Positions 6,001-22,386 of a stretch of DNA of 26,970 bases are shown piece by piece. The DNA is from Ignavibacteria bacterium (GTDB lineage: Bacteria > Elusimicrobiota > Endomicrobiia > PHAN01). Both the position numbers and the translations under genes were made by a program. The notes beneath the pieces were generated by a model that saw only the letters and a list, made by a program, of their open reading frames with translations, was not told where the DNA came from and did not search any database. The stretch lies in contig JBGFRZ010000008.1 in NCBI GenBank assembly GCA_041694835.1, positions 1-26,970 on the forward strand, given 5' to 3'. Position 1 is the stretch's first letter, and every line of letters begins with the position of its first letter.

Positions 6001-9000
6001 TTCCTGAAATGGTCGCAAGCGCGGGCGACGTGAGATAAGAATCCCGGGGCGGAAGCGAGACAAAAGAGTCGGGAGCTTGATTGTCATATTTGAAAGGCAC
6101 TCCTCCGATATTAGCGTCTATATTGGAGTTTGACACAAGAAGTCGGTTCCCGGCGGCGTCTTCACATTCAACCCAGACGCGGTAGTTGTGTCTCTGGATA
6201 AACGAAGGCGGAGTGATAGTCCACGAAGTTGTCCCGCTCACCGGAACGCGAATAGCCGGGTTGTTCACATCGGTTGTCCACGCTGCGCCGCCGAGCCAGT
6301 ATTGGCCCAGAGTAGTATTTTTCAGGATTATTCTAACAGCCGTCACGCCGGAGGTGGCGTCGGCGGTAGTGCCTGAAATTTTTGAAAGAGTCGTATAGTT
6401 AATGTTTGTTTGAGGCAACACAAAACCAGCGGTAGGAGTCGTTCTGTCCACTGTGAAGCCGACAGTGGAAACGGTTATTTGCCAGTTGCCCGTCCAGCCG
6501 GCATCATTTGACTTCAACGCGCGGTCGCGTGCTCTTGTTTCTAACCGGTACGACACGCCATCCGCCCATGTGACATTTGATGAATCCCAGTTAAATGGAA
6601 CATTTGAGCCGACAGGTGATACTGGTATATCAATCCATCTTTCTGAAGCGCTCCAGCCGCTTACTGATGCGTCCCACCATTGTGGTCCTGCAGGGTTTAT
6701 GACCCATAGACGAACAAGGTTCACTCTTGAAGCATTTGCTCCAAAATCAATTCCCGTGCCTGATATGCTTGAAATAGTTGGATAAAAAAGACCGCTTTGG
6801 GGTCCCGGGAAGGCAAACTGCGATGTGGGTGTTGTAGTGTCTATAAATACAAATTCGGCGGTAGTGTTCGCTTGATTGCCAGGTTGGTCGAACGCTTCTA
6901 TGTAGACACGGTAAATTGTATTATCTCTGAGTTGTGCGCCAAACCCGGAGAACGTCCAGGTGGGCAGGGCAGCAATAGTTGCAGTCGAATAAATTGCAGT
7001 TGCAGAATTAAATGCACCTGTTGCGGGGTTCCACCATCCGCCTGATGTCCCCGGGTCCTCGTCAATAGCAACGGTGACGGTAGAAATTATATTTGAAATA
7101 ACGTCGGCAGCGGTACCCGAAATCGTAAGTAAAGTGTTCCAGTATGAAGAGCCAGTCGTCGGCTGTAAAAGTGAGACAGTCGGTGGCCCATCGTCCACCG
7201 TCCAGGTGGCAGAAGAAAGGACAACCTGAGTTGAACCGGCAAGATCGTATCCTCTACATTCTATACCATACCGGTCGCCGTTTGTCCATCCACCGGTTGG
7301 AGTCCATGTGGTGAACCATATTCGTGTTCCTGCTCCTGAGCCATCTTGTGCACGATGCCAGATAGTTTTGTCAACCCACAAACCTCCTTCGAATTTACGG
7401 ATAACACACTCTACCCTGTCTAACCCTGCCAAATCACCGTTCGCGGTTCCGGAAAGAGTAGCCAGTGCGCCAGATCGCTGGAAACTACCTGCTCTTGGAT
7501 ATGTCACTTGCGCTACGGGCGGTGTTGTATCAATTATAACTTCAACCGGTGAACCGAATGTTCCTGCATTAGGTGGTGTTGCGTTGTCTATCGCACGAAT
7601 TTGGAGCGTATATCTCTGGTCAGAAATAATTTTTGCTGTATCAGTGAATATGTAATCCCAGTTAGGCGATGTGTAAGCATCCGGGGAGAACTCTGCAAGC
7701 GCTGTTTGCCAGGTGGTCCCTGTCCAGTAGTAAGTAACCGTTCCTTCAAGTCGGGCCAATCTCAGTCTTATATTAGACACGGACGGTATACCAGCGGGTG
7801 AGTCAACCGCAGTTCCTGCTATTGACCAGGTAAGGCCAGGGTTCACTCTACCATTACCATCAGGGTCTTCGTATGAAACTATTGATGCAACAGGTGCTTG
7901 ATTATCCCATCTGATAGTAAATGACGACTCACCGACAATAAAGAATTGCTGGGTATTACCTGCGGGTAATGCCTGGTCTTTCGCCCGAGAGCGGACTATG
8001 TATCTAAAATCGTGTGTCCAGTCACCCGTGGCAGGTAGTCGCGTAAATGTCCAGGAAGATGCAGCAACATTGGGAATATGTATTGTAGAAGTCCCCCAAT
8101 AAATTACTGCCTCTTCTGGTTGTGAAGCATCCCATGTGAGATTATCAGCACGCCAGTATCTTAGCGGTAAGCCACCTTGGGCAGGACGTGTTATGTGTAT
8201 CTGAACTAAATCTAATCTGCCTGCTGAACCACCAGCGCCGGCGGGGTCCCAAGCGGTCCCGGTAATTTGTGTCAATGAAGAATATATAGCATTATTTGAT
8301 AAAGTAGTTGTTCTTGCTGTTGGCGATGAAGTATCAAACAAGAAATTGTTAGCAGTACCTACCTGAGTATTTCCTGCTCTATCTCTTGCTCTTGGAGTAA
8401 TTGCATATCTCACACCATCCTGCCAGGTCGGTATGTTCGTGGTTCTATACCAGCGGGATTCAGCAGGGACCCATGTTGCCAGATTCCATACACCAGCAGC
8501 TTGGTTTACCCATGTAGAGTTGCTCACATCCCAGTATGTAGTGCTATAGCGTAAGTCACGAATTGTAATCTCAACTGTATCAACTTCACCCGGTAGTGTA
8601 TCACCGGCAGTTCCTGAGAGTTGAGTTAATGTTTGATATGACGGCTCACCTGCAGTCGGTAAAGTTACAAATGCTGTTGGCAGTGTCTGGTCGAAAATAA
8701 CCGTATTGCCAATAAGGGTTACTGACTGCTCTTCACCTGCTGGACCCAAACCTTTAGACAAATAGTAATATGAAGTATTAGTAGTCCATGCAGAAGTGGA
8801 GATATTGCCCGTCCATTCCCAGTATCGGCTATCGTCAGCTAAAACAGATACATTTGATACATTGAGATAAACTCTCGGGGCACCCTGTCCTGACCCAGGT
8901 GATGAAAATGAACTACCGTACCAGTAGAAACCATCTGTTCTTCGTTCTACAGAGACCCTTATACTCGCTGTATCTGCCGTAGTGAATTTATTCGCTCCAC

Positions 9001-12000
9001 CTATAACCGACTGCGGCCTGTAATTCAAATGAGAATTATTTGCTGGGGTATTTATCCATGTGTCAGGAAATGGTGCAGAGAAATAGAAATTAGTACGCCA
9101 GATAGTTGTTTCTGTGTTTCCGCCTTTATCAATTGCATAACATCTAACTGCGTACCATGCCTTGTTCCAACTCCACGGTTCACCGGAAACATAATACCAG
9201 GTTGAACCGGCAAGAACTGTTACAGATGATACGGGTAGCCATACAGTAGTATCTGTAACCCATTCAGAACCGTTATATGCTCTTAATATAGTTCCCGGTG
9301 GCGACCCTTTTGGATCTTGCTGACCTAAATACAATAGTTGCACTCTGACAATATCAACTTCACCCGGAGAAACATCCCGACAGGTGCCGGAAATTGTATT
9401 CAGTGGTATCTCGCCATAAGTTAGATCATTAACAGGTAAAGTCACAGTAGATATCGGTGCTGTAAAGTCTGCTTTGATGTTGGTTACTGTTGAATGGACA
9501 AGTTGATAATTACTTGCCCTATCCTGGACACGAATATTTATTTCATATGTCTCACCTGTCTGCCAGGGTGTTGTGTTCAGTTGCCACCATGTACCATTTG
9601 GACTTAAAGTACCATATTGTGGAATATTGTTCCATACTTCAGGTGCATTTTGTACTGTCCAGGAAGAATCAGAAATACGCCAGTAATGGTTAGGTTTTGG
9701 ACCAGTAAGTTGTCTTATCCTTACCCATACATTGCTTGATATACCCGGCGGCGCATCCCACGATGAACCAGTAACTCTCCCGGTTGCACTTATGAAAGAT
9801 TCAGTAACAGGAAAAGTAATAGTCCCTGTAGGCCTTGAAGTATCAAATACAAATTCAACATCACGGACAGTGCCTATATTGCCGGCACCATCACCTTCAG
9901 AATTTGTAGCACCATCCCTTGCTCTTGTAACTGCTCTATATTGTCTACCATTTACCCAGGTCGGTGTTGCTGTATAAACCGCCGGCCAATTCCAGAAACC
10001 ATCGCATAAAATCCAGGTTAATGTCGGCTGCCAACTGGCACCGTCCCAATATGTTGCCCCTTGAGTCAAATCACGGATGTATATTCTTACTTCGGTTACA
10101 CCTGAGTTTTCAGGCGCAGCAGGTAAATCTTCTGCTGTCCCGGTGAGCATTGCAAGACCAACTGAATTATAGTGTGCACCGTCTTGTAAAATACTGAAGT
10201 ACGACTGCGGCTCCATAGCATCAAACAAAAATGTAAGAGATGCATCAGGTGATTCACTATTATTCACAAAGTCGGTTGACCTACTTAAAAGTTGATACCT
10301 AAAACCTGATGACCAGGTGACATTTGTGCTTATAAACACCCAGGTGCCACTTGATGGACCCCAAGATGTCCAGGACGGTGTTAAATCAATCGGTGTAGTA
10401 ACCCAATCTTTAATTGATTCATTCCAGTAGAGTTCTCCTGCAATTCTTTTTATTCTTAACCTGACAGGGTTGACAGTGGCTAACCTTAAATTATCAGTTG
10501 CGGTTCCAGAGATGGTAGGCACAGACCTCTGCGGTGCTGATGTTGGCAAATTTGTCTGCGATACCGGTGCTTGTCTATCAATGGCTATATTCACTATTGA
10601 TGATGCAGGACCCTGATTATTTCCGGATTCTGTAACATCTTTTGCTCTAACACGAATAAAATATCGCCTGTCATTTTCCCAGACACCGCTTGGTATTCCA
10701 TCAAGACGAAATGTTGCGGAGCCACCACCGATAGGAGTAAAGACACTGGCACCAATCCAGGTATTCTCATCAGCCACCCATGTCCAGCCGGTAGGTCCTG
10801 ATAGGCCAGAATCAGGACCACTTATTGTGCCACTTAAATCATCATCCCTTGTGATAGAGATTTCACCGCCTGTCGGCACAGAAAACAAATCAAAACATGT
10901 CCCGGAAATTGTTGCAACACTTGAATAGATTTCATTATTTATTGGAAAAGTTACAGCAGAATTTGGTCCTGTAGTATCAAATCTGAAAGTGTGACTATTA
11001 AGCATTGAAATGTCAGTATATCTTATTATTGGTGGTATCGCCTCCCAAACACCTGCTCTGTCTACTCCCCGAGTGCGGACATTGTAGATTCTACCATCAC
11101 TAAACGCACCGGTTAATCTATCATAATTCCAGGGAGCAACACCAGCCGCATCGGTCCAGTATTCAGAAGTTATCCATGTGCCGGAAGTAGTCCACCAGCG
11201 CCAGTAAGATGTCGTTGCATCGGTTATATCAGCGATACAGAACTGAATTCTATCTACACCGGATAAATTGTCCGAACTTGTCCCGGTAATCATTCCTAAA
11301 CTGTTGTATGTGATTCCATGTCCGGGTAAAGTTACCCGGGATATCGGTGCAGTTATATCAAAAGCGACGACAATACCGTCTTCTTCAACAGGTGGTAATG
11401 TCTCGCCACGACCATCAAACCGCCATCTTGACATTATCCGGTAACTACGTTCAGCCCAGGTGACATTGACAGCATTAAAAGTTGCCGTGAATACGAAATA
11501 CTGCCCACCCGGAACAGACCAATATCCATCACCCCTGCTTGTTACATCATTCCATGTTTCTGCGCCGACCCACCCGGCTGGACTTTCTCGCCAGAAGAAA
11601 CCATCATCACGCCGGATTGCAACTTGATAAATATCAATCAGCCCCGGGCTACTCGCACTCCCCCAAGTAGCTTCACAGTATATCTCACTAAGTGTTGAGC
11701 GAAATTCGCCTGTCCTCGGTCTGACAACGAACGACCTCGGCCAGCTGCCCCGTCTTAACCGTACCGGAAACCTACCGGCACCAGGTGACTCTATCCTCGT
11801 ACCACCATGGCTTTCAGCACGGGAACGAATTCTGGCATTTTCTACGGTTGCCGCACCATCACGAAATTCTGCCGGTGGGACATCTCTATACTGAAAATAT
11901 TCTCTACCCTCAGCAACTATCCAGGATGCTTCCGGAAGGTTCATAAAACTTGTCCAGTTGTTAGGCGGTGTACCTGTCCAACCCTGCCAGGCGATACCGG

Positions 12001-15000
12001 TCCAGTACCGATCGCCTATTTCATCAAAAATTTGTATCTTTACCTGGTGTATCGGTGTCCCGTCACCAACCCATGCTTCACCGACAAGAAACGGCTGACG
12101 GTCAGTCTGGGTCTGGTCAGTTTCCCTATCCCACACAAGTATGTCAGTAATCATTGACCCCGGTGCCGTGGGGTCTAAAGTGAAGTTTGAAGTAGATAAA
12201 ACTACATCAAAGTTTAACGCATTATCAACAGCACGGGCACGAACACGAAAGTCAGTTACAGCAGTAGGCCAGATGCCGGAGGTATTGTAAAACCATTTCC
12301 ACACGGTCCCCGGTGCTGTAGCCCCTTCCCAACCACTAAACGCTACCCAGGTAGAACCAACCACCCAGGAAGTTCCGTTGAAGAATGTGTTATTTGTTAT
12401 GTTCCAGATTTCTAATTCTACCCTGTTAAGTGAAGAACCAGGAGCAGTTATAGTAGATGTCGCAAGGTCAAATGCATTTCCCCTTATAGATGTTAATGTG
12501 CCTAATACACTATTATGAAGGGGTTGCGTAATACTTGATGTAGGTCTTGTGATATCATATGTAAATACAATTTCAGGGCTCCATGAACCCCAGTTTCCCG
12601 CAACATCTCTTGCTCTTGCTGATAGCCGGTATCTATGGTTATTGGTCATTGTAGGTGTAGCGCGTGTCCACCCACTGGCAACGGCCCCAGGTGAGACAAC
12701 AGTCCCATCTATTTCAATATAACTTGCCTGCCAGGCAACACCATTCCAGTATGTAGTAGGCCAAGGAAGTTCTCTAATCCATAATCTCACTCCACCGGCG
12801 GGTATACCTGAGAAGTCGTCAGTGGCATTACCTTCAATTTGCGCTAACGGATTGGTTGTATTATTAAAGGCAGTATTGTTCGCTGGTCGAGATACGGTTA
12901 TCGTTGGACCTGCAGTATCTATTGTAAACTGGACCGCAGTTGAAGTAGATATACGGCCGACAAAGTCCTCTACGCGGACTTCTATAGTGTAGTTGGCTGA
13001 AGTCCATCCCGGAGCAGGATATGTCCAGGAAGTAGTTGTTCCAGTAAGACCCTCGGCGACTAACGGCCATACAGTCGGCATAGTATCCTGCCAGAAAGCA
13101 CCATTCCAAAAAAGATTCGGGCTCGCAGAAATATTCCTTATAAGTATCCTTAATCTACTTAAACGTTGGTTATCGCTTGCCGTCCCAAAAATTGTCCCCA
13201 CTCCGCCAATACCATATACACTGGCATTAACTGGAAATGTAGTAACTGCTACCGGTGCCTGTAGGTCGATTGTGAATCTGACAAAAGGTGTATCAGGATT
13301 TAATAAAGACTTATTTTCTTGATTACCTCCTTGGTCTCGTGCATAACCACGAATCTGGTAAATAAAATTATTTATCCACCCAGTTGAAGGAACAACGTTC
13401 CAGTTATGTTTCCATATTCCGCTATCAAGAGTTCCGGTTTCTAAATTAGCAGTTAAAGGTGTCATAGCACCCCAGCCAGTCCCAGTGAAATATTCTGCTG
13501 TTTGTTCACAATAAATTGATATTCTTTGACTATCCATTGAAGTTCCTACAGGATTGGAAGGGGCAGTATCCCAGGCAGTTCCTGAAATTGTTGTAAGTCC
13601 AGCAAGTAATGTTCCATCAAGCGGATACTGAATAGTAGAACTTGGCCTTGAAATATCAAACCAGAACCTTCTGGTAGTGCTAATCGCAGGACCATTATTT
13701 GTTGGCAGAGAAGAATCCCATGCACGAACAACTAACTCATACTGACGACCATCATTGAATGCAACGGAAGAAATAAGTATTCTCCACATTCCAGGAGCAT
13801 AAATTACTGCAGGATTCCATGTTATTGTTTCTGACCATGTCTTTGTTGTCTCATTCCAGTATGTTGCTCCCTGTCCAAGGTCCTGTAACCGCACTTCCAC
13901 TGTAGAAATATCTGTATCTCCAGTCCCCTGTGAAGTTGTATGTGCCCCTAAAGGTGCAGATATAAATCCTAAACTTGCCGGGACATCTATAACAGGTGCG
14001 TTAACAACAGTATCATAAGTAAATGTAGTTGTGGTAAAATCCGTCTCATACCTCAGATAATCCTTTGCCTGGATATTTATCTCATACACAGTATTTGGAT
14101 TTCCAGTCCAGTTAAACAAATCAACATAAGCCCATGTCGTAGTTCTTTGATTTATATTAGTTCCAATAGTTATCCATGCCGCAGTAGCATAAACTATTGT
14201 GAAATCATTAGCAGGGTCACTCCAGTATCTGTTATCGCTGTTACGTTTGATGCGAATATATAAGGAATCAATTGCAACAGTATCACTTGCAGTTCCTGAA
14301 ATAGTCAGCAGTGCACTTCGCCTGGTAGCATTTACTGGAAGAGTCGCTCTACTTTCTGGCTCAGCAGCATCCCACCAGAAAGTAACAGTACTACGTACTA
14401 CTTCATCATTTGGGTCAGGACTGCCTGCAGAATTTACTACCCTATCCCGTGCTACAGAAGCAATATAATAAGTTGTCCCATCTGTCATTTGAGCTGCGGA
14501 AGGTAGAAAGGTTGTCCTTGTCCATGTTACATCCACTCCACCAGCCGGAACAACACTGTTTGGGTCAGGCCAGTTAGTATGACCGGGTAAAGGCCCTACT
14601 TGCCATAGGTTACCATCCCACCAAAAACCGTCACTACGCCAGAGTAACCATTTAACATTGTTTACTCCACCCTGAGAATTATCCTTCCCTGTACCAGAAA
14701 TTGTAGTTAAACTATTTATAATTGAATTGTTTGTTGGTTGATTACAAATTGAATCCGGTAACTCAGGAGTAGCTTGATATTCATCGTAATAAAACACTGT
14801 CGTTGACCAATCTACTGTATAATTCCCGACTATATCCCTTACTCGTGCCCAGATAGTATATTTTCTGTTTTGTGACCAACCAGGATTTGCGTATTGCCAA
14901 CTACCACTGACTACACCGGTTGAAAACCATCTATTATAGTCACCTTCATAGCCACTTACGTAATCCTGCCAGCCAGTCCCCGGGACCCAGTATTTATTTA

Positions 15001-15880
15001 TTATACCTTCTTCTTTGATAAATAACCAAACACCGGAGGATGCATCTATTACGAAATTGTCTCTTGCCGTACCAGAAATATATGGTAGTGTCTTACGCCA
15101 GGTGTTATTCGCTGGCTGCAGCACAGTAAAAGTAGGTGGCGTTTCATCAATAACGAAAGTATTGGTTGATGCGCTCGGTTGCCAGTTACTGGCTCTATCC
15201 TGAATCTGAACACTAACATAGTAAGTACAATTATTTGTCCAGGCACTTGATGGAATGGTCCTGCTCCAGTTAGGATAAGTCCAGGAGGTAGTGGAAAATT
15301 CTACATAAGCTGACTGCCAACCTGAGCCATTCCACCAGTAACCATTCTCAAGATCAGCAGTTTGTTTGTTCATTCTAAGAACAATTCGTGAGATTACCCC
15401 GGGGCTAGTGTCTACTGCTGTTCCTTGAATCAAAGTAATATTTGCTGCTCTGTAGTATCCATTGTTACTGATATCTCTGGGGAAGGTTACTGTTGCTGTA
15501 CCAAAAGATGTATCATAGACAATATCTGCCTGGGTTACAGGTGACTGCGTATGCCTGGCATTATCTATTGCTCTAACTTGTATACGATAGTTCCGGTTAG
15601 TTGTCCAGATATCATCAGGATTGTCTAATTGCCACGGGTTTGTTCCGGTAGCATCGTTCCAGATTGGTGTAGCGCTATATACCCAGCCCGTGCCCATAAG
15701 ATAGTAAGTATTAGAAAATGTCAGGTCGCGGATTAATACTTGAACTTTTGCTACTCCGGAAATATTATTTCCACTGCCATCACTTGAATTACCGGTTATT
15801 ACAGGTAAACTGTTATAGTGTTGACCATCAACTGGTGATAATAATGATGAAGTTGGTGCTAAATAATCTCTTGTATAGCA
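2..15880 (-). repeat. Array of ~43 diverged Ig-like protein repeats (~110-145 aa each)
   Basis: I counted ISGT-like motifs by eye at ~140, 510, 860, 1232, 1590, 1948, 2316, 2665, 2985, 3338, 3738, 4098, 4482, 4840, 5229 ... 15420, 15789. The repeats are conserved at protein level and not obviously at DNA level. Confidence 0.85.
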
Positions 15881-18800
15881 GATACTTACCGCTTCAGCAT
15901 CTACTGTCGGGTTTGTCACTAGTGCCGCACCATAATAATAATTGTAATAACCGGAATAAATTATCCAGGCAGCAGTAGGTGAGCCAAATGGGCTTGAGCC
16001 AGTCCACGGGTATGTATACAGCCGCGAAGCAACCCTATCACCGGAAACAATCACTGCACACTGCATCTTATCTTCCAAGGGGTCATTCGGGTCAGGAACT
16101 AAAGTTACTGAATAAATAATATTTGTTAGAGCATCATTAGCAACTTCAGCACTCCAGACACTACCAGTAAGGAAATGATGTTTTAATGTAGTAGCAGTAT
16201 CAGCATAGGCAACTACTAACTGTCCACCAGAACGCTCCCAGGCTAAATCAAATGGCCTATAGCACCTACCTGTTGCTGGAAATCCAGTATTCGGTGTTAG
16301 CGATAGTTCAGCATTTCTTAATGCCAAAGTATTATCTAATGCCTGTGTTGCGCCATTAAAAACCATTATGGTTAAATCATTATCGTTATCGTGGATACCA
16401 ATAGCAACTTTTTCTGTACTCAGGTCTGAAGCACATTTTATCCACCTCGGTATATCGGTAGTAACAGCAGTATCAACATCATAAGCGCTCCCTGAAGCAC
16501 CGGTAAAAACTCCGCTCCATGTTGCACTTGTTGAATACCATAAATTATACCTGATTAGACCATTAGCTGTGCCTTCTTGATATACAACTATACCTTTATA
16601 ACTTGTTGCATCAGCAGGATTCTGTGTATAAGCAACATCAAAACATTGTTGCCAGATATACGGTGCTGATAAGGTAAAAGTAAATGTGGAGACAAAACTT
16701 GACCCATTCCATACAGCACCGTGAACATCATTTAGTGTATCAAGAGAAACTAAAATCATTTCGTTAGAATCAGGGTTTGGGTTCGGCTCTAAACGTATCC
16801 ATAAAGGTGTGCCTGTACCAGGCCACTGTGTTGCCGGTATTGTTACCGGTGCACTCCAGGTGGTAGCCCCAAAAGGTAAAGTGCGATACACCGGCTGAGC
16901 AATATTGTTAGAATATACAACTAAACCATCACCACTGTTCCTTTCATAAGCAATATCAAATCCTCTTAAATGCTCATAAGAATTTACAGTATCAATAGCT
17001 GATGTTATTTCCTGTGCTGCTGTCCAACCTGATGCCTCTGTCCAAACCTGTAAGTTTATATCACCGTTATTATCTAAGGTTCCCATTGTTTTCTGGTTTG
17101 CTTTTGGGTTCGCTCTCGTCACTACATAAAATGGTGTTCCGCCAACATCGTTACTGAAATTATCACTTGCTGACCAGGAAACTGTATTCCAGTCACGATA
17201 TGGTATCCTGTAATCATTACGCGTGTAGATAAGTGTATTTTCATTTGTCGGTATTGTTGTATATCGGACAAATTGTGCAGAAAATGGCACTAACATAGTT
17301 GATGGTGAAGACCATGTTCCTGTGCCTCCGGCCCATTTCTGATACATAATATTACCTTGCTGGTTTATACAGTAAAGATGTATATTGTTTGTCCCTGCTT
17401 CTCTGCCCATCTCAATATGAGAAATGTTCATAAGAACATCGCTTGCGGACTGTTCAGAAGCGCTAAATGTGCCATTTGTCCAGGTCCAGAATCGTGGTAA
17501 AGTTATACCACTTTCTGCATAGACAAATACTGCACGATTGCCACTCTCCTGGAAACATACATCAAAAATTTTATTTACACTAGATTGAGCATTGACTTCC
17601 GGCATAGCTCCACCTACTGTAGCCGGTAGCGTATTCCATACACCTAAATTCTCTCTCCATACTGCGAAAGCTATATCATTGAATGATGTAAGTGCTATAC
17701 AGGCAATATTTCTTGCCCCTGCTGCGGGGTCCATTACTGCTTTAAGACCAGTCCATGTGCCATTACCACTGTCAATATCAATTGTATTAGTTCCAGCAGA
17801 CCACGCACCACCATCGGAATACGCCGCTTGTATTAAATCAGCAATAGCACCGAAAACATATGCACGACCCGAGCCACTGGAATAGGCAATATCCCACGTT
17901 TGATATAATGGATTTTCAATAGCAGTTGCCATCAAAACACCGTCAGTAATATTTCTTCCTGTTCCCCACGAACCGCTATTCCATAACCACGCATTAAGTT
18001 CACTACCAGCATCTCCTACACAGACAAGTATCTCAGTTGGTCTTGCTCCAGGGTTTGCTTCACATCTTATCCATCGGACTATCGAAGTAGATATCGCACC
18101 TATCTGGAATGCTGTCCCTATAGTCCAGGAAGTACCATTCCAGTATGCATAGTTGCCCTGACCAGTAGCAGTACCTAAACTCCAGACCACCATAAATGTA
18201 CTTGTTGCTAACTCATACGCACCATCAAAAAACCTGAACCCATAACCTCCTGCAGTGAGTAAGTTAGTTGCAGAAAGACCTGTTTGCAAAGTCTGTGCAT
18301 TGCTCCAGGTGGTACCATCCCAAACCCAGGCACAGAGAACTAATCTTGTAACTGTAGTTCCACCAGGGTCTATCGCCGCAATAACTATTTTTTCATTCGG
18401 TCTCGGTCCACCACCGGGTGCTACATAAACCTTTTGCCAGAGTATTGTCCCTTCAGAACCTGCTATTGTCGGTGCTAAGGTTTCTGAACCCCAGGAGCCA
18501 GCAGAATATGTTCTCATTATCGGTCTAATTTCATTCCTATTATACCCAATCACCGCCTCCGACGGCCCCGCAAATACGGGGTCAGGTCTTGAAATTTGAC
18601 AAACAAGACCCACCAACAGCATGAAAACGGTGAAAATGGGGACACTTCTAATTTCGTATAAGTTTTGTATAATGTTTTTAGTTTGATGAAAAGTCTGCTT
18701 GACAAAAATTTTTATTTGTTGTATAATATAATCAATGAAACTTGACAAGAGCCAACGTAAGGGATTAGCAAAAACTGTGTATGACATTGCTAAACTTATA

Positions 18801-19090
18801 TGTGCAATACTTATTTTAGGTCCTGTAGTGTCACCTGTGGGATTTAAGATTTCATTATTTATTCCGGGATTCATAATATTTCTTATTTTTATACTACTCG
18901 GGATAATTCTAGATAGAGGGGAATAAAACAAATGCAAGGACCTGATCTTCTTTACATTCTTTTTGGTGGACTTTTTGTATTCGCCGTCGTGATTGGTGCA
19001 ATTGTTGTCCGCCAGGACTGGCAAGAGAAACATCCTAAAACTACCAATAGAAAATAGAGCCGATAGTTTTTGCCAACTTGATAGTTTCAT
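2..19090 (-). CDS. Giant secreted/surface protein (>=6,363 aa, 3' end beyond window): extended N-terminal leader, two beta-propeller-like regions, ~43 tandem bacterial Ig-like repeats
   Basis: I translated 19090->18491 codon by codon without meeting a stop; the in-frame TAA upstream is at 19100-19102. The same frame reads ...WLSTETSANFRV at the window edge. The ORF track lists no long minus-strand ORF here, which is what an unterminated frame would give. Repeats have the form DxTxPxS(x)nISGTAxD...YWNGxxW...YxIxxRAxDxAGN. The start is either 19090 (ATGA-coupled, weak SD ACGGA) or 18622 (no SD). Confidence 0.95.
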   Translation of the reverse strand, partial: MKLSSWQKLSALFSIGSFRMFLLPVLADNNCTNHDGEYKKSTKKNVKKIRSLHLFYSPLSRIIPSSIKIRNIMNPGINNEILNPTGDTTGPKISIAHISLAMSYTVFANPLRWLLSSFIDYIIQQIKIFVKQTFHQTKNIIQNLYEIRSVPIFTVFMLLVGLVCQISRPDPVFAGPSEAVIGYNRNEIRPIMRTYSAGSWGSETLAPTIAGSEGTILWQKVYVAPGGGPRPNEKIVIAAIDPGGTTVTRLVLCAWVWDGTTWSNAQTLQTGLSATNLLTAGGYGFRFFDGAYELATSTFMVVWSLGTATGQGNYAYWNGTSWTIGTAFQIGAISTSIVRWIRCEANPGARPTEILVCVGDAGSELNAWLWNSGSWGTGRNITDGVLMATAIENPLYQTWDIAYSSGSGRAYVFGAIADLIQAAYSDGGAWSAGTNTIDIDSGNGTWTGLKAVMDPAAGARNIACIALTSFNDIAFAVWRENLGVWNTLPATVGGAMPEVNAQSSVNKIFDVCFQESGNRAVFVYAESGITLPRFWTWTNGTFSASEQSASDVLMNISHIEMGREAGTNNIHLYCINQQGNIMYQKWAGGTGTWSSPSTMLVPFSAQFVRYTTIPTNENTLIYTRNDYRIPYRDWNTVSWSASDNFSNDVGGTPFYVVTRANPKANQKTMGTLDNNGDINLQVWTEASGWTAAQEITSAIDTVNSYEHLRGFDIAYERNSGDGLVVYSNNIAQPVYRTLPFGATTWSAPVTIPATQWPGTGTPLWIRLEPNPNPDSNEMILVSLDTLNDVHGAVWNGSSFVSTFTFTLSAPYIWQQCFDVAYTQNPADATSYKGIVVYQEGTANGLIRYNLWYSTSATWSGVFTGASGSAYDVDTAVTTDIPRWIKCASDLSTEKVAIGIHDNDNDLTIMVFNGATQALDNTLALRNAELSLTPNTGFPATGRCYRPFDLAWERSGGQLVVAYADTATTLKHHFLTGSVWSAEVANDALTNIIYSVTLVPDPNDPLEDKMQCAVIVSGDRVASRLYTYPWTGSSPFGSPTAAWIIYSGYYNYYYGAALVTNPTVDAEAVSICYTRDYLAPTSSLLSPVDGQHYNSLPVITGNSSDGSGNNISGVAKVQVLIRDLTFSNTYYLMGTGWVYSATPIWNDATGTNPWQLDNPDDIWTTNRNYRIQVRAIDNARHTQSPVTQADIVYDTSFGTATVTFPRDISNNGYYRAANITLIQGTAVDTSPGVISRIVLRMNKQTADLENGYWWNGSGWQSAYVEFSTTSWTYPNWSRTIPSSAWTNNCTYYVSVQIQDRASNWQPSASTNTFVIDETPPTFTVLQPANNTWRKTLPYISGTARDNFVIDASSGVWLFIKEEGIINKYWVPGTGWQDYVSGYEGDYNRWFSTGVVSGSWQYANPGWSQNRKYTIWARVRDIVGNYTVDWSTTVFYYDEYQATPELPDSICNQPTNNSIINSLTTISGTGKDNSQGGVNNVKWLLWRSDGFWWDGNLWQVGPLPGHTNWPDPNSVVPAGGVDVTWTRTTFLPSAAQMTDGTTYYIASVARDRVVNSAGSPDPNDEVVRSTVTFWWDAAEPESRATLPVNATRRSALLTISGTASDTVAIDSLYIRIKRNSDNRYWSDPANDFTIVYATAAWITIGTNINQRTTTWAYVDLFNWTGNPNTVYEINIQAKDYLRYETDFTTTTFTYDTVVNAPVIDVPASLGFISAPLGAHTTSQGTGDTDISTVEVRLQDLGQGATYWNETTKTWSETITWNPAVIYAPGMWRILISSVAFNDGRQYELVVRAWDSSLPTNNGPAISTTRRFWFDISRPSSTIQYPLDGTLLAGLTTISGTAWDTAPSNPVGTSMDSQRISIYCEQTAEYFTGTGWGAMTPLTANLETGTLDSGIWKHNWNVVPSTGWINNFIYQIRGYARDQGGNQENKSLLNPDTPFVRFTIDLQAPVAVTTFPVNASVYGIGGVGTIFGTASDNQRLSRLRILIRNISASPNLFWNGAFWQDTMPTVWPLVAEGLTGTTTSWTYPAPGWTSANYTIEVRVEDFVGRISTSTAVQFTIDTAGPTITVSRPANNTAFNNTTNPLAQIEGNATDDFSGIPAGGVRLWIRELPWPTTYWNGVAWQASYIEIDGTVVSPGAVASGWTRATPTMTNNHRYRLSARARDVAGNWGSWSPEIVFTYDITRPTSSITQPLHNSVLGTLTSIRGNAFDLATSTITAPGSSLNRVELEIWNITNNTFFNGTSWVVGSTWVAFSGWEGATAPGTVWKWFYNTSGIWPTAVTDFRVRARAVDNALNFDVVLSTSNFTLDPTAPGSMITDILVWDRETDQTQTDRQPFLVGEAWVGDGTPIHQVKIQIFDEIGDRYWTGIAWQGWTGTPPNNWTSFMNLPEASWIVAEGREYFQYRDVPPAEFRDGAATVENARIRSRAESHGGTRIESPGAGRFPVRLRRGSWPRSFVVRPRTGEFRSTLSEIYCEATWGSASSPGLIDIYQVAIRRDDGFFWRESPAGWVGAETWNDVTSRGDGYWSVPGGQYFVFTATFNAVNVTWAERSYRIMSRWRFDGRGETLPPVEEDGIVVAFDITAPISRVTLPGHGITYNSLGMITGTSSDNLSGVDRIQFCIADITDATTSYWRWWTTSGTWITSEYWTDAAGVAPWNYDRLTGAFSDGRIYNVRTRGVDRAGVWEAIPPIIRYTDISMLNSHTFRFDTTGPNSAVTFPINNEIYSSVATISGTCFDLFSVPTGGEISITRDDDLSGTISGPDSGLSGPTGWTWVADENTWIGASVFTPIGGGSATFRLDGIPSGVWENDRRYFIRVRAKDVTESGNNQGPASSIVNIAIDRQAPVSQTNLPTSAPQRSVPTISGTATDNLRLATVNPVRLRIKRIAGELYWNESIKDWVTTPIDLTPSWTSWGPSSGTWVFISTNVTWSSGFRYQLLSRSTDFVNNSESPDASLTFLFDAMEPQSYFSILQDGAHYNSVGLAMLTGTAEDLPAAPENSGVTEVRIYIRDLTQGATYWDGASWQPTLTWILCDGFWNWPAVYTATPTWVNGRQYRAVTRARDGATNSEGDGAGNIGTVRDVEFVFDTSRPTGTITFPVTESFISATGRVTGSSWDAPPGISSNVWVRIRQLTGPKPNHYWRISDSSWTVQNAPEVWNNIPQYGTLSPNGTWWQLNTTPWQTGETYEINIRVQDRASNYQLVHSTVTNIKADFTAPISTVTLPVNDLTYGEIPLNTISGTCRDVSPGEVDIVRVQLLYLGQQDPKGSPPGTILRAYNGSEWVTDTTVWLPVSSVTVLAGSTWYYVSGEPWSWNKAWYAVRCYAIDKGGNTETTIWRTNFYFSAPFPDTWINTPANNSHLNYRPQSVIGGANKFTTADTASIRVSVERRTDGFYWYGSSFSSPGSGQGAPRVYLNVSNVSVLADDSRYWEWTGNISTSAWTTNTSYYYLSKGLGPAGEEQSVTLIGNTVIFDQTLPTAFVTLPTAGEPSYQTLTQLSGTAGDTLPGEVDTVEITIRDLRYSTTYWDVSNSTWVNQAAGVWNLATWVPAESRWYRTTNIPTWQDGVRYAITPRARDRAGNTQVGTANNFLFDTSSPTARTTTLSNNAIYSSLTQITGTAWDPAGAGGSAGRLDLVQIHITRPAQGGLPLRYWRADNLTWDASQPEEAVIYWGTSTIHIPNVAASSWTFTRLPATGDWTHDFRYIVRSRAKDQALPAGNTQQFFIVGESSFTIRWDNQAPVASIVSYEDPDGNGRVNPGLTWSIAGTAVDSPAGIPSVSNIRLRLARLEGTVTYYWTGTTWQTALAEFSPDAYTSPNWDYIFTDTAKIISDQRYTLQIRAIDNATPPNAGTFGSPVEVIIDTTPPVAQVTYPRAGSFQRSGALATLSGTANGDLAGLDRVECVIRKFEGGLWVDKTIWHRAQDGSGAGTRIWFTTWTPTGGWTNGDRYGIECRGYDLAGSTQVVLSSATWTVDDGPPTVSLLQPTTGSSYWNTLLTISGTAADVISNIISTVTVAIDEDPGTSGGWWNPATGAFNSATAIYSTATIAALPTWTFSGFGAQLRDNTIYRVYIEAFDQPGNQANTTAEFVFIDTTTPTSQFAFPGPQSGLFYPTISSISGTGIDFGANASRVNLVRLWVINPAGPQWWDASVSGWSASERWIDIPVSPVGSNVPFNWDSSNVTWADGVSYRLETRARDRALKSNDAGWTGNWQITVSTVGFTVDRTTPTAGFVLPQTNINYTTLSKISGTTADATSGVTAVRIILKNTTLGQYWLGGAAWTTDVNNPAIRVPVSGTTSWTITPPSFIQRHNYRVWVECEDAAGNRLLVSNSNIDANIGGVPFKYDNQAPDSFVSLPPRDSYLTSPALATISGTVIDYIQGAGVFETRLNIRRTNNNGATWQFWGGADWQTADPNYPISATLVLLDGGNQIYEWRYGIGSGAWTDNYKYEFYVRSRDNAFNDLTPSPNWETPIMSSATYDTTRPTSRVTFPPLPGSTFAGAISTISGTANDTNTMASRVSEVRVAIKRLSDNLWWGGWAAPSWTTSAEPIFSTATISDVWTSSVNWRYVVSPAMWTNTTSYWVISRAQDRSTNFETDWATNTFTCDTTPPTSRVTLPANASEVDSLPQITGTCSDPSPGQLDRVAILIYCVEGQTGDPTPPAGKYWSPGATQWLSTPTFITIPTAGPTWSYDSSGVGWVAKESPGYQYRISVRAWDKAENREIEVAASTITFNFSAPLPQTLVTFPAAENYYRISGDLGATGSANAYTNSVEVQLSSGPGYSTFWSHFLNNWVTISTWAPAAGTNPWSYNFANAIFQDNVRYVIRSRGKGPAGTELPANIEDVFFNVDRTLPASGITNLTAGDHYTGFGGAKNISQIKGTATDPDSPQFSGRISAARVQIKRKGTTLTYNDTLHDYENADNWLTASADDGAFNSNNEPWTYNIAFPTSAWKDEGEYEISARAIDASLPGGNVFTTPITNIIIDRTMPTSGLQFPNRAIHNSIPLVSGTATDTAPGRHSGIAIRVLNKDTTEYWGGAFWDVTDVWRTSSLDANFTTWFAVYPGTWSYSGINWISGQLYNIRTRASDRAQNTEIAGGGFDFIFDSERPVSRVTVPLGGQKIRELTAIQGTADDFTAKRWVTGVSTTTAENDGVNIAMRQVSTGKFYSGAGAWNDTTHKWWTVVYSSVTKTWSRGTAVLGTFTGSGNPSDGVYEIIPRARDNADNFEVSYTTRTFIWDTTPPASFTTFPSSGSFVPTITQITGTANDATAGTREVSVNFYYTDGVDYYWTGSSWTTNIHNLIQNMGGAVGVSTWTVSITTGLVQGIKYAARSVAIDDAGNTDPSPRTIFFTCDRVGPLIALSSPVAGGFYGPGNPLNIIWGTAADSPAGVNRTELEIVNVTDGTKWNGQSWVVVSSTWLVTSGLVNWQLTSPPWVANRNYTVQARSFDNANNQTVSSVVSFMFDSTSPVSGIVDPNMPFESTLTLITGTAFDVDPPSPGVKSDLSRVQVAVLRGADFWDQLGNVFSSGEKWWDATGTTNWQWWDNDLSWQDGITYAVRVRVYDRAGNVSAINEYSFTFDGANALSGVIVPQDGKKYSSLPSISGTATDPGTNPSGVRDVWVAIRNMSTLNFWNPATGAFTEAESRWGIVTGTGPWTLLASSYSLTSGHLYRLWVEARDNSGRDPSDPADWTSGGVSFRFDTQPPVSRTTAPVSGLFTNAQVSGIFGTANDTLTGNSGVRYVRFRMQRSDGGWYDGDIGWAGSDQWFLTAYTDGNPGSWNRVFPTPPFAPDYSYTIWSRAEDWAEPTANVETAISSVTFTFDQTPPQTSVLFPVHNEWYRTISVITGTADDILPAGTGKVRSGLSRLEVEIRRLSDNWVYQSGGFANVTSSFHVAQVWPTSWTFSPSNYWTNNTSYTIQSRAWDRALNSQLSTLNYIIFDTSAPVSFVTLPVTNGAIMLELSTISGTAQDWGLGRSREVRVRLQRVTVANPSEGDSIPGDNAWWSGSDWNGTDSSWLTTTLNEGAGVWTFPTAGIGFTYNGGYRVDSRAEDRATNFELAIASRTFIFRPPPAASVITTPSHGTFRNALTSIVGTANSATVTLLLSVQRNSDNFFRASTSWTVTETWFNISPSSPSWSFAAGDIFVHGSSYTIRSRGRNPWGIWENETLVTPPAPNAVLFTWDTAEPLSVLQRPFEGGYFNSLLTLSGTASDGLAGVRSVDVLIRRGADYFRVSDSSWVVTEVWNPASFTAPNWQLVMVSSTAAICWTDGTQYLVRSRASDDVLPLPGNREGAGAGNVGVNFWYDITRPTATVNLPANNVAYRTLATISGSLIDNLVIERVEIYIHDLGPASAGFYNGTGWQAGVVWLSTETSANFRV
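15900..18568 (-). other. N-terminal region of the giant protein: two ~430-aa beta-propeller-like units
   Basis: Recurring blade-like motifs (W)xWDGxxW, FDxA(Y/W)ExxSG and RW(I/L)xxxxxP, e.g. AWVWDGTTWS, FFDGAYE, GFDIAYERNSG, PFDLAWERSGG. The second unit starts near 17245. The fold is inferred. Confidence 0.6.
18578..18652. repeat. REP-like elements (GGGGTCAGGTCTTGAAA...CAAGACC; AATGGGGACACTTCTAATT) inside the giant ORF's signal region
   Basis: GGTCTTG (18585-18591) and CAAGACC (18604-18610) form an inverted repeat. Related copies occur at 19225, 19406 and 19143. Confidence 0.65.
18699..18727 (+). promoter_or_regulatory. Consensus sigma70 promoter antisense to the giant gene
   Basis: TTGACA 18699-18704, 17-nt spacer, TATAAT 18722-18727. 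The ATG is at 18735, implying a near-leaderless mRNA. Confidence 0.85.
18735..18926 (+). CDS. 63-aa two-TM small membrane protein (resembles DUF6722-type proteins), nested antisense in the giant ORF
   Basis: MKLDKSQRKGLAKTVYDIAKLICAILILGPVV...GFIIFLIFILLGIILDRGE has two hydrophobic segments and lies directly behind a perfect promoter. The family resemblance is from memory. Confidence 0.75.
   Translation: MKLDKSQRKGLAKTVYDIAKLICAILILGPVVSPVGFKISLFIPGFIIFLIFILLGIILDRGE
18932..19057 (+). CDS. 41-aa single-TM peptide, second gene of the nested cassette
   Basis: MQGPDLLYILFGGLFVFAVVIGAIVVRQDWQEKHPKTTNRK*. SD GAGGGG at 18916-18921; ATG 5 nt after the upstream stop. Confidence 0.7.
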   Translation: MQGPDLLYILFGGLFVFAVVIGAIVVRQDWQEKHPKTTNRK

Positions 19091-19206
19091 TTTATTCCGT
19101 TAATAACAATTTTGAGGTAATTAGGGTAATTGGGGTAATTGTAATTGGGGACGGTCCTTAATTGCCTAACCACCGATAATATTTTTTCCCAACTATATAC
19201 TCCCAT
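19087..19206 (-). CDS. 39-aa short ORF translationally coupled to the giant gene
   Basis: SD GAGGA precedes MGVYSWEKILSVVRQLRTVPNYNYPNYPNYLKIVINGIK*. Its TGA overlaps the giant ORF's ATG (ATGA at 19090-19087). Confidence 0.55.
   Translation of the reverse strand: MGVYSWEKILSVVRQLRTVPNYNYPNYPNYLKIVINGIK
19114..19163. repeat. Tandem GGTAATT-containing 9-mers leading into an AATTGGGGACGGTCCTTAATT element
   Basis: gaggtaatt agggtaatt ggggtaatt gtaatt ggggac... This encodes the PNY repeats on the minus strand. Confidence 0.8.
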
Positions 19207-19307
19207 TTTTATTTCCTCAAATTTGGGGTCATGTCTTGACATTCGACATTTTTGTTATGTATTCTTTTATCAAATTTTTTCCCTCTGGAAGCCTCTGCTT
19301 GCAGAGG

Positions 19308-19448
19308 TCATCTCCGTGGGTCAAATGTAGAAGGGTCTTTAGACCCGTCCACATTTTTTTCGCCTCTAAAGAGGCCTCTACATAGACCCGAACAAATTGT
19401 TGAGATCAGGTCTTGAAATATAAGTTTTTTCCAACTATCTGTCTCCAT
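19308..19448 (-). CDS. 46-aa short ORF starting 1 nt after the HEAT gene stop
   Basis: TAA-G-ATG junction; METDSWKKLIFQDLISTICSGLCRGLFRGEKNVDGSKDPSTFDPRR*. The N-terminus duplicates that of the HEAT gene, and the body is largely REP-derived. Confidence 0.45.
   Translation of the reverse strand: METDSWKKLIFQDLISTICSGLCRGLFRGEKNVDGSKDPSTFDPRR
19326..19382. repeat. GTAG-type REP doublet (REPIN-like)
   Basis: TGTAG-AA-GGGTC-TTTA-GACCC ... GCCTC-TAAA-GAGGC-CT-CTACA: two inverted REP hairpins with GTAG ends. Confidence 0.75.
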
Positions 19449-19449
19449 C

Positions 19450-20241
19450 TTATTTTATTCCAAGAATCTCTAACCTTTCTTTTGCTGCATTTCTTACAGA
19501 TTCTTCTTTATCATCTAACTTTTTTTTCAAGAGTGGAATAATCCTTTCTTTATCAGTAGCGCCATAGATTAAACTCAATGAAGTGATTGACTGGACTCTT
19601 ATTACTGGATTTAAATTATCTAGTCCTTTTAAGAAACATTGATAAATTTCTTCTTTTGCCGAATAATTCGTCAACGCATTAGATGCCTGCAGCCGCACTC
19701 CAACTGCTTCTTTTTCATTCAAAAACGTCTCTATTAAACTTGGGACAACTGATTCATCCTTAGAATAACCCAAACTATAAGCAGCAGAAAAACGGACATC
19801 AGCACTCAAATCAGTCTTCAGTAAATTTACAATCTCCTTTACAGTCATACTATCCTGGTGCACAGATAATGCTTCAACTACTCTGGCTCTTATGTATGGT
19901 CTCTTTTGTGCTTTCAGTTCTTTCAATAATTCAGCAGTTGCATTTTTATCTCTTGCTTTACCCAATTTCTCAATAGCACATAACTTTTTACTTATGTCTT
20001 TACTTTTCAAATTTGATATTTCCGTCACAATCAGGTCAGGTTTGACATCTGTTGATGTCTCAACCTGCCACAGGCGGGACATTTCTTGTTTAATTTTTTC
20101 CTGGCCAGAAATCTGTCCAACTGATCCAAAAATCAGCATCAAATAAACTAAATATCCACCCAGGTTCAGGTTCGTCCCCCACCAGCGGCGGGTGGATAGA
20201 CATTTCAATTTCTTAAATTTATGCCAATTATCTGTTTCCAT
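19450..20241 (-). CDS. Exported HEAT-repeat protein (263 aa)
   Basis: Repeats IRARVVEAL, VRFSAAYSLG, VRLQASNAL, IRVQSITSL, LDDKEESVRNAA. Hydrophobic signal-like segment GGYLVYLMLIFGSVG. Confidence 0.9.
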   Translation of the reverse strand: METDNWHKFKKLKCLSTRRWWGTNLNLGGYLVYLMLIFGSVGQISGQEKIKQEMSRLWQVETSTDVKPDLIVTEISNLKSKDISKKLCAIEKLGKARDKNATAELLKELKAQKRPYIRARVVEALSVHQDSMTVKEIVNLLKTDLSADVRFSAAYSLGYSKDESVVPSLIETFLNEKEAVGVRLQASNALTNYSAKEEIYQCFLKGLDNLNPVIRVQSITSLSLIYGATDKERIIPLLKKKLDDKEESVRNAAKERLEILGIK

Positions 20242-20410
20242 CTTCTTTTGCTTTTTTGATTACTTGATAGACCCTTTCTTCTTTAACCCGCCGACAGAGA
20301 CAACAGATTGCATGGGCACGAAGGTCTTCATTTGTATTTTCACTTGCCTCCAAAAGTACATGTTCATATATCCAACATAGCGATTGCAGATATTTTATCC
20401 CGAGTATGCA
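20228..20410 (-). pseudogene. Remnant of a second HEAT-repeat gene
   Basis: One frame reads VLLEASENTNEDLRAHAICCL...KEERVYQVIKKAKED, a HEAT-like pattern with no credible own start. An alternative 35-aa frame (20260-20367, MNMYFW...GSIK*) is ATGA-coupled to the HicB-like gene. Confidence 0.5.
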
Positions 20411-20591
20411 CGTCAAGGAAAACAACATCAAGCGCCGCCTCTTTGTCGTGAACAAAACAAAGCAGCCGTCGATGAGCATTCATAAGCGCTTCGTCCATTG
20501 TGTCGCCGACGCCGAAAACGGTTCTGACACTCGTGCAGCACGCAAAGTATTTTCCATTTGACATTCTCTTTACGGCAACGGGATATATCAT
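20364..20591 (-). CDS. HicB-like antitoxin N-terminal-domain protein (75 aa), no adjacent HicA
   Basis: SD GAGG; MIYPVAV...GKYFA...GDTMDEALMNA matches the HicB pattern YPxx...GxYxA...GxTxEEAxxNA. Confidence 0.65.
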   Translation of the reverse strand: MIYPVAVKRMSNGKYFACCTSVRTVFGVGDTMDEALMNAHRRLLCFVHDKEAALDVVFLDVHTRDKISAIAMLDI

Positions 20592-20738: not shown

Positions 20739-21227
20739 TTAACAGCGGAGGACTTCTAATGTTTGTTCAACGGCAGGGGGCTGCCGGTATTTTTCGCTTA
20801 AAACTCCAATGAGATGCGCCATCGGAATTATGAGCAATAGGACAAGTTTTACGATGATTTTTTCAAATTTGTTGATGGCAAAAACATCATGCGCCATGTC
20901 AACGATAATTGTTTTGTGGCAAAATGGTTTGAATGTCGAGAAATCGACGAGTGCCCTTTCGACAGAGACTTTAACATTTTTGACAGAATTAAGCTCTCTC
21001 ACCATTAGCATCTGGTAAAGCGTTATTACGAAAAGGCCTCGCAGTTGGCTGGTGGCGGATGGATTTTTAATTATTCTGTTGAGGCTGTCGCGGACATCTA
21101 TATCTTCGGTTATCGCTGATTCGGATATGTCGTTAAATAAAAAAACCGAACTTCCCACGGCAATTCCTTTATCGCCGAAAAGTCCGGTTAAAATTGTAAG
21201 GATAAAAAATATTTTTAAGGTCATCAT
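20739..21227 (-). CDS. 162-aa hypothetical exported/membrane protein, first gene after the riboswitch
   Basis: SD AAAGGT 6 nt before the ATG at 21227. N-terminal MMTLKIFFILTILTGLFG signal-like segment, second hydrophobic stretch IIVKLVLLLIIPMAHLIGVL, ends RQPPAVEQTLEVLRC*. Confidence 0.7.
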   Translation of the reverse strand: MMTLKIFFILTILTGLFGDKGIAVGSSVFLFNDISESAITEDIDVRDSLNRIIKNPSATSQLRGLFVITLYQMLMVRELNSVKNVKVSVERALVDFSTFKPFCHKTIIVDMAHDVFAINKFEKIIVKLVLLLIIPMAHLIGVLSEKYRQPPAVEQTLEVLRC

Positions 21228-21228
21228 A

Positions 21229-21324
21229 ATAATACCTTTGGCAACCTGCCAATCAAGGGCAAGCCCTTGACGCATCGGCTTTGCGTCCCCCGATTACTCG
21301 GGGTTTGCTATTAACAGGTATTAT
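21229..21324 (-). ncRNA. GEMM-I (c-di-GMP-I family) riboswitch, A20 variant
   Basis: Minus strand: ATAATACCT-GTTAATA-GCAAA-CCCCGA-GTAA-TCGGGG-GACGCAAAGCC...TCAAGGG-CTTG-CCCTTGA...GGTTGCC-AA-AGGTATTAT. It has the GCAAACC, GNRA loop, GGACGCAAAGCC and GGTTRCC hallmarks and a perfect 9-bp P1. Confidence 0.9.
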
Positions 21325-21332
21325 ATCGGTAT

Positions 21333-21363
21333 AATATATAGCAAAAAAAAAGAGATTTGTCAA
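21333..21363 (-). promoter_or_regulatory. Sigma70-type promoter for the riboswitch/giant-gene operon
   Basis: TTGACA (21363-21358), 17-nt spacer ending TGC, then TATATATT. It lies ~10 nt upstream of riboswitch P1. Confidence 0.7.
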
Positions 21364-22357: not shown

Positions 22358-22386
22358 TTGACATCGACTCTATTTTTGTGTATAAT
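22358..22386 (+). promoter_or_regulatory. Consensus sigma70 promoter of the rimP operon
   Basis: TTGACA 22358-22363, 17 nt, TATAAT 22381-22386. Confidence 0.9.

Follow-up and report, generated by a model that had tools for sequence, protein, structure and literature searches.

The window (the whole stretch of 26,970 nucleotides that was analysed) carries on its minus strand a GEMM-I riboswitch in which position 20, by the numbering of the Vibrio cholerae aptamer Vc2, is A and not G. We consider it probable that this riboswitch reads c-di-GMP, which would be the ligand in all ten lineages with an orthologous leader, with A20 tolerated or shifting the threshold, and that it controls the Shine-Dalgarno (SD) sequence of the adjacent gene, ORF1, through its P1 helix.

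A covariance-model scan (cmscan) found a single Rfam match above cut-off in the whole window, c-di-GMP-I (RF01051), on the minus strand from 21319 to 21237 and complete over model positions 1-87. The gathering cut-off of this family is 35 bits, and the 59.5 bits of the window aptamer were reproduced by a whole-genome search with RF01051. The original prediction had named a GEMM-I riboswitch at 21229-21324 with an A in an AATA context before GCAAACC, and had proposed an Infernal scan as a check; the scan agrees with it, the A coincides with model position 11, and the limits coincide with the two outer strands of P1 (21324-21316 and 21237-21229). Only one point needs correcting: no strand had been given, and the element is on the minus strand.

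The base in question is the 11th of the RF01051 match, T on the plus strand, and is read in the RNA as AAUA followed by GCAAACC. The consensus at this model position, which is unpaired and directly precedes the G-C pair that opens P2, is G. In the Gs1761 aptamer, J1/2 comprises A9-A14 and P2 starts from nucleotide 15 (PMC6274999), and A14 corresponds to G20 of Vc2 (PMC6140456). By these published boundaries of J1/2 and P2, model position 11 of the window RNA is the equivalent of Vc2 G20 and Gs1761 A14. The remainder of the binding pocket was found to be intact: the window RNA has the J2/3 adenine, which intercalates in Vc2 (A47) and Gs1761 (A41) (PMC6274999, PMC5888326), and the J1/3 cytosine, equivalent to C92 and C75, which pairs with the G-beta of the ligand (J1/3 being G74-C75 in Gs1761; PMC6274999), and its P2 loop is GUAA, a GNRA loop. 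It also has the 5′ leader with an expression platform that belongs to this class, namely a promoter at 21363-21335, an SD sequence in P1 and an AUG at 21227. The element is thus a GEMM-I (c-di-GMP-I) riboswitch, predicted from its sequence to bind a cyclic dinucleotide, and it shares A at the G20 equivalent with the GEMM-Ib group.

Table 1. Features of the riboswitch and of the genes behind it in the window
Feature	Position	Strand	Basis or remark
Giant protein, >6363 aa, runs off the window	2-19090	-	ORF list
HEAT-repeat protein, 263 aa as listed, true start may be later	19450-20241	-	PF13646 HEAT_2, E 5.4e-15
ORF2, 75 aa, conserved small protein	20364-20591	-	Comparison with G001
ORF1, 162 aa, signal-peptide-like N-terminus, invariant C-terminal LRC	20739-21227	-	Translation; directly behind the riboswitch
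Whole aptamer including P1	21229-21324	-	Rfam alignment and MFE fold
SD-like AAAGG inside the P1 3′ strand	21235-21239	-	Read directly
Rfam RF01051 c-di-GMP-I match, P2 and P3 cores and junctions	21237-21319	-	59.5 bits, E 1.7e-9
J1/3 cytosine, equivalent of C92 (Vc2) / C75 (Gs1761), present	21241	-	Model position 83
J2/3 adenine, equivalent of intercalating A47 (Vc2) / A41 (Gs1761), present	21282	-	Model position 38
Position 20 (Vc2 numbering; A14 of Gs1761) = A	21309	-	Model position 11
Sigma-70-type promoter: TTGACA 21363-21358, 17-nt spacer, TATATA 21340-21335	21335-21363	-	Read directly

The promoter ahead of the aptamer is of the sigma-70 type and was missed by a consensus scan because the last base of its -10 hexamer is A. 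The same layout (TTGACA or TTGACT, 17 nt, TGC-TATAnT) was found ahead of seven of the ten orthologous leaders described below. From the position of the promoter, the transcript should start near 21330-21326, a few bases 5′ of the P1 5′ strand, and the aptamer would begin a few bases past the promoter. In the outer P1 helix, 21324-21317 is paired with 21236-21229; further in, the canonical register gives the pairs G21315-C21240 and U21316-A21239 and leaves A21238 and A21237 as bulges, a layout which matches the P1 consensus line of the related Rfam model RF03167. P1 is formed in the unconstrained minimum free energy (MFE) fold, which has a z of -3.8 against shuffled sequences, and the GG of the SD sequence is predicted to be paired both in this fold and in the ensemble. 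The helix ends one base short of the AUG. In all ten orthologous leaders the SD sequence lies inside the P1 3′ strand; in each of the ten, UACC(C)G and CGAAGGUA make up P1, and the start codon follows at a distance of 4 to 10 bases.

As P1 consists of the 5′ end of the transcript and the SD region of ORF1, ligand binding would act on the initiation of ORF1 translation, most likely by locking the SD sequence into P1 and so repressing the gene. This OFF direction is somewhat favoured over ON; the choice is the less secure part of the model because thermodynamic folding pairs the SD sequence even without ligand in all ten leaders, and because in several of them the SD region would be masked as well by an alternative hairpin that it forms with the 3′ aptamer strand. 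Control by an intrinsic terminator was rejected: the sole minus-strand candidate near the aptamer (21252-21238) has a 6-bp stem and a poor U tail, and was not kept in G001, a genome of the same family but of a sister genus.

On the opposite strand, a perfect sigma-70 consensus promoter (12 of 12 bases; TTGACA, 17 nt, TATAAT) was seen at 22358-22386, where the divergent genes rimP-nusA-infB-rbfA begin. Since the listed GTG start of rimP overlaps this promoter, the true start is probably further downstream.

ORF1 heads a conserved cassette of three genes (ORF1, ORF2 and the HEAT-repeat protein), followed on the same strand by the gene for a giant Ig-like repeat surface protein. ORF1 has no match in Pfam and no credible one in NCBIfam, where its only line, MscL, scored 16.2 bits against a cut-off of 142 and is far below threshold. 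Its family is very small, with 19 representatives of about 160 aa each among 1.84 billion proteins. These proteins begin with a signal-peptide-like segment, and their alignment (A3) shows two invariant elements, an R-D-x-x-N motif and the LRC that closes the sequence, besides a hydrophobic stretch in the C-terminal part. The AlphaFold model of ORF1 is all-helical with a mean pLDDT of 67, too low a confidence for a search by fold. The homolog behind the G001 riboswitch is 33% identical. Scans of genome contigs and of metagenome contigs with ORF1 peptides gave no match, and a word-index protein search with ORF1 returned only the protein of the window itself.

The product of ORF2 gave no match in Pfam or NCBIfam; tblastn found it at the same position in G001 (38.6% over 70 aa), and it follows ORF1 in seven of ten further loci. 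A simple longest-ORF reading overlooks ORF2, and the 83-aa ORF that overlaps it (20479-20228) is not backed by conservation in this way. The HEAT-repeat protein also has a homolog at the same place in G001.

Thr, Ser and Gly are abundant in the giant protein, whose N-terminus is hydrophobic and whose domain matches are weak and Ig-like (Big_3_2, Big_13). All 12 of its relatives in a large protein collection come from Elusimicrobiota/Endomicrobiia assemblies, and all those that are named are labelled 'Ig-like domain repeat protein'. In G001 the cassette is followed on its own strand by a homolog of the giant protein (38% over 2216 aa). From each of seven further genomes 11-20 kb downstream of the cassette were taken, and all seven have a homolog there in the same orientation, at 27-44% over alignments of hundreds to thousands of residues. 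A gene order that is kept in nine genomes therefore gives good support to the originally proposed association of the riboswitch with a giant Ig-like repeat protein. Size, repeats and N-terminus suggest that the protein is an adhesin, and its gene, separated from the HEAT gene by a gap of 360 nt, may be co-transcribed with the cassette.

Several observations concern this junction and its surroundings. Several short inverted repeats lie in the spacer of the window (19091-19449, minus strand). The junction measures about 70 nt in G039, and in G001 it holds instead a 1066-aa spermidine-synthase-like/TPR protein. The region of G043 that is homologous to the giant protein (L272, G043:C4:300700-320699) is split into many frames of 200-1100 aa.

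A profile of the ORF1 proteins of the window and of G001 was searched against 122 genomes of the class and gave matches in 12 genomes, that of the window included. Eight of the ten new ORF1 loci had a GEMM-I aptamer directly upstream, with A at position 20 in two of them (G041 and G043) and G in six. The leader in G001 is homologous to that of the window, with the same promoter, the CGATATAA box, the aptamer core and the placement of the SD sequence ahead of the ORF1 homolog, and has G at position 20. The layout of the window riboswitch thus stands ahead of an ORF1 homolog in nine other genomes of the class, and the ten orthologous leaders divide into three with A and seven with G, both states occurring inside one family. 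A20 is therefore not conserved among the orthologs, and judging by genome labels at least two changes at position 20 would be needed. Across the class, 33 aptamers were read from 13 genomes, of which 27 have G20 and six, including that of the window, A20. Among 89 public aptamers from many phyla that share the same P2 core (found by a DNA pattern), position 20 is G in 87, A in one and C in one; none of the 89 is accompanied by an ORF1 homolog, and they were rejected as orthologs.

The closest relative of the NusA protein in the genome collection, with 63% identity, belongs to an Endomicrobiia assembly, and together with the relatives of the giant protein this places the DNA in Elusimicrobiota/Endomicrobiia; the host is, as had been supposed, of a lineage other than Geobacter. 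Its genome (G000; 1.9 Mb) is a draft of 89 contigs and 97% complete. Eight matches to PF00990 (GGDEF family) were found in it. Seven have the guanine-reading pair N-x8-D, and these proteins comprise four with GGEEF, one with GGEEM and two Rec-GGDDF proteins; the eighth match is below cut-off and without the motif. The genome also has four PilZ proteins and three further GEMM-I aptamers, all with G20, and a search for EAL domains found none. The seven Asp-type GGDEF proteins, the four PilZ proteins and the three G20 aptamers indicate that a c-di-GMP system is present.

Two features of these genes extend to other genomes of the class. A tandem pair of GEMM-I aptamers, both with G20 and the upstream one fitting best as the GGC variant RF03167, lies at G000:C84:69736-70166 (L001), and the same tandem was seen in G001 (L115) and G002 (L096). 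The Rec-GGDDF proteins, which have a shortened GGDEF-like domain with HIGGDDF (G000:C56:10613-10900 and G000:C86:15068-15406), are conserved across the class, being found also in G001, G003, G013, G015, G041 and G043; a GGDDF enzyme of Geobacter is reported to be active (PMC8835794).

Hypr GGDEF enzymes, which make cGAMP, have Ser348 nine residues after Asn339, where canonical enzymes have Asp, and the combination of Ser348 with GGEEF is inactive (PMC6456294, PMC8835794). By this rule (PMC6456294), we looked for proteins in which the sugar-face Asn is followed nine residues later by Ser or Thr and which have GGDEF rather than GGEEF. None of the seven proteins of the host genome qualified, since all seven have Asp at the Hypr position and five have GGEE[F/M]. 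A search of the same genome for SMODS-type CD-NTases gave no match while its positive control was detected; a search for DncV-like NTFases also gave none, a weak blank because its control was silent. In this 97%-complete genome there is thus no recognisable cGAMP synthase, Hypr GGDEF or DncV/CD-NTase, as far as the searches reach, although one could lie in the missing 3% or belong to a class that such searches do not recognise.

The relatives were read in the same way. The four A20-bearing genomes G003, G013, G015 and G020 and the G20 control G001 gave 34 GGDEF matches, 31 of them readable: 28 with Asp, one with Asn (G015), one with Glu, one degenerate and none with Ser or Thr. The 18 matches in G041 and G043 were 15 with Asp and three fragments without the motif. 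No Ser/Thr GGDEF was therefore found in any of the seven A20-bearing genomes (the host, G003, G013, G015, G020, G041 and G043). G015 carries both an Asn-type GGDEF (GAAEGN with RYGGDEF) and a SMODS-type gene (G015:C16:4580-5044, L134; G015:C7:14240-14725).

Four other explanations were considered. One is that the RNA is a deliberately bispecific sensor, which reads the cell's own c-di-GMP together with cGAMP of a different origin, for example from a CBASS-type cyclase borne by certain strains or mobile elements, both signals then acting on the surface-protein locus. That A20 aptamers bind both ligands in vitro (PMC6140456) fits this idea, and SMODS-type genes do occur in two A20-bearing relatives of the class, G015 and G003. 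However, the A20 aptamers of these two sit at loci other than that of the window, and in G041, G043 and G020, as in the host genome, no SMODS-type gene was found. Nor is any CBASS signal known to act on a riboswitch, and we regard a bispecific sensor as unlikely.

The original prediction, that cGAMP or mixed signalling controls the locus, corresponds to a truly cGAMP-selective, GEMM-Ib-like switch whose synthase is unrecognised or unassembled, the giant-protein locus having been re-wired from c-di-GMP. In its favour, the A20 of the window stands in an otherwise intact pocket, A20 is the selectivity switch of the Geobacter aptamers (PMC6456294), and it recurs in three of the ten orthologous leaders, always as AAUA, and is rare among public aptamers with this P2 core (1 of 89), so that it is not random noise. 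Against it, the nearest ortholog (G001) has G20, and those natural A20 aptamers that do not come from Geobacter bind both ligands or favour c-di-GMP (PMC6140456). The reading further requires a synthase that has not been seen in the genome: the search for Hypr-type GGDEF or CD-NTase genes that had been proposed with it found none (no Ser or Thr among seven GGDEF proteins, no SMODS match, and no DncV-like match with the control silent), which is, as far as the searches reach, part of the outcome that had been named as speaking against it, and the six other A20-bearing genomes of the class have no Ser/Thr GGDEF either. With A20 unconserved as well (three A against seven G), cGAMP control is not supported, and a selective switch is very unlikely.

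A related proposal is that the Endomicrobiia locus toggles between G20 and A20, some lineages using 3′,3′-cGAMP or another mixed dinucleotide made by a cyclase outside both the Ser-type Hypr GGDEFs and the recognisable CD-NTases, for which one of the conserved Rec-GGDDF proteins or the Asn-type GGDEF of one relative would be candidates. We give this very little credence; if true, riboswitch-based cGAMP signalling would have arisen a second time, independently of Geobacter.

It is likewise highly improbable that the leader is weakened or non-switching, the G to A change and a longer AU-rich P1 masking the SD sequence constitutively with nothing useful sensed. The SD sequence is indeed predicted to pair whether the aptamer fold is present or not, and P1 has 8 + 2 pairs in the window against 4 + 2 in the orthologs. 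However, no conserved core position is lost and the score is well above cut-off, ORF1 is undamaged and can be aligned with its homologs from end to end, and the inner P1 pair, U-A in the window and C-G in G001, has changed on both sides with pairing kept.

What remains favoured is a switch for which c-di-GMP would be the physiological ligand. The G to A change at position 20 would be a lineage-specific variant that keeps c-di-GMP binding, probably at lower affinity. In Vc2, the G20A change shifts the affinity for c-di-GMP from picomolar to tens of nanomolar, and the mutant binds c-di-GMP at 53 nM and cGAMP at 120 nM; Cbe 1-2, a natural A20 aptamer of Clostridium beijerinckii, binds them at 30 nM and 463 nM (PMC6140456). 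A20 aptamers read c-di-GMP through a protonated adenine, and the same source calls bispecificity widespread (PMC6140456). In Geobacter A20 is necessary for cGAMP selectivity, and the A20G change turns Gm0970 into a c-di-GMP sensor (PMC6456294), from which the A20 pocket of the window would be expected to accept cGAMP. The variant would thus bind cGAMP in vitro too, without being a marker of a cGAMP pathway. What makes the Geobacter aptamers selective, as against bispecific ones, is described as unsettled (PMC6140456), so that selectivity is not readable from the sequence of the window.

The alternation of A and G within one orthologous riboswitch lineage, together with no synthase being found, means that A20 alone should not be read as a sign of cGAMP, a useful caution in annotating the many GEMM-I matches with A20. 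GEMM-I aptamers with A20 outside Geobacter are already known. Screens of natural A20 aptamers were reportedly carried out by Kellenberger, Ren and Nelson, all in 2015. A cGAMP-reading switch, if it were true, would be a second origin of cGAMP riboswitch signalling, and in a barely studied phylum. The interest that remains is modest: a cyclic-dinucleotide switch conserved across the class Endomicrobiia before a small-protein cassette and a giant Ig-like protein, whose natural A/G alternation provides matched pairs for asking whether A20 tunes the c-di-GMP threshold. Full-text searching of the literature gave no paper that deals with cyclic-dinucleotide riboswitches of Elusimicrobiota or Endomicrobiia.

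Among the known systems, the GEMM-Ib riboswitches of Geobacter (Gs1761/pgcA, Gm0970, pilM) share with the window A at the G20 equivalent and a place upstream of extracellular or surface functions (PMC6456294, PMC8835794). Unlike the window switch with its SD control, they are transcriptional ON switches with terminators (PMC9262584, PMC6456294); they are found together with the Hypr GGDEFs GacA and GSU1937 (PMC8835794), whereas no Hypr GGDEF was found in the genome of the window, and the alternation of A and G among the window's orthologs is a further difference. Vc2, the prototype of RF01051, belongs to the same fold family by covariance model, with the equivalents of A47 and C92 present in the window, and is likewise of the translational type with P1 as the switching element (PMC9262584). 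It differs in that position 20 of the window RNA is A and not G, the host belongs to Elusimicrobiota, and the window switch precedes a small secreted protein heading a giant-protein locus. Cbe 1-2 and the G20A mutant of Vc2 share with the window RNA both A20 and a host or construct without a dedicated cGAMP pathway. The sequences of P1 and P3 differ, but by analogy we predict that the window RNA would behave as these two do, being bispecific and binding c-di-GMP through a protonated adenine.
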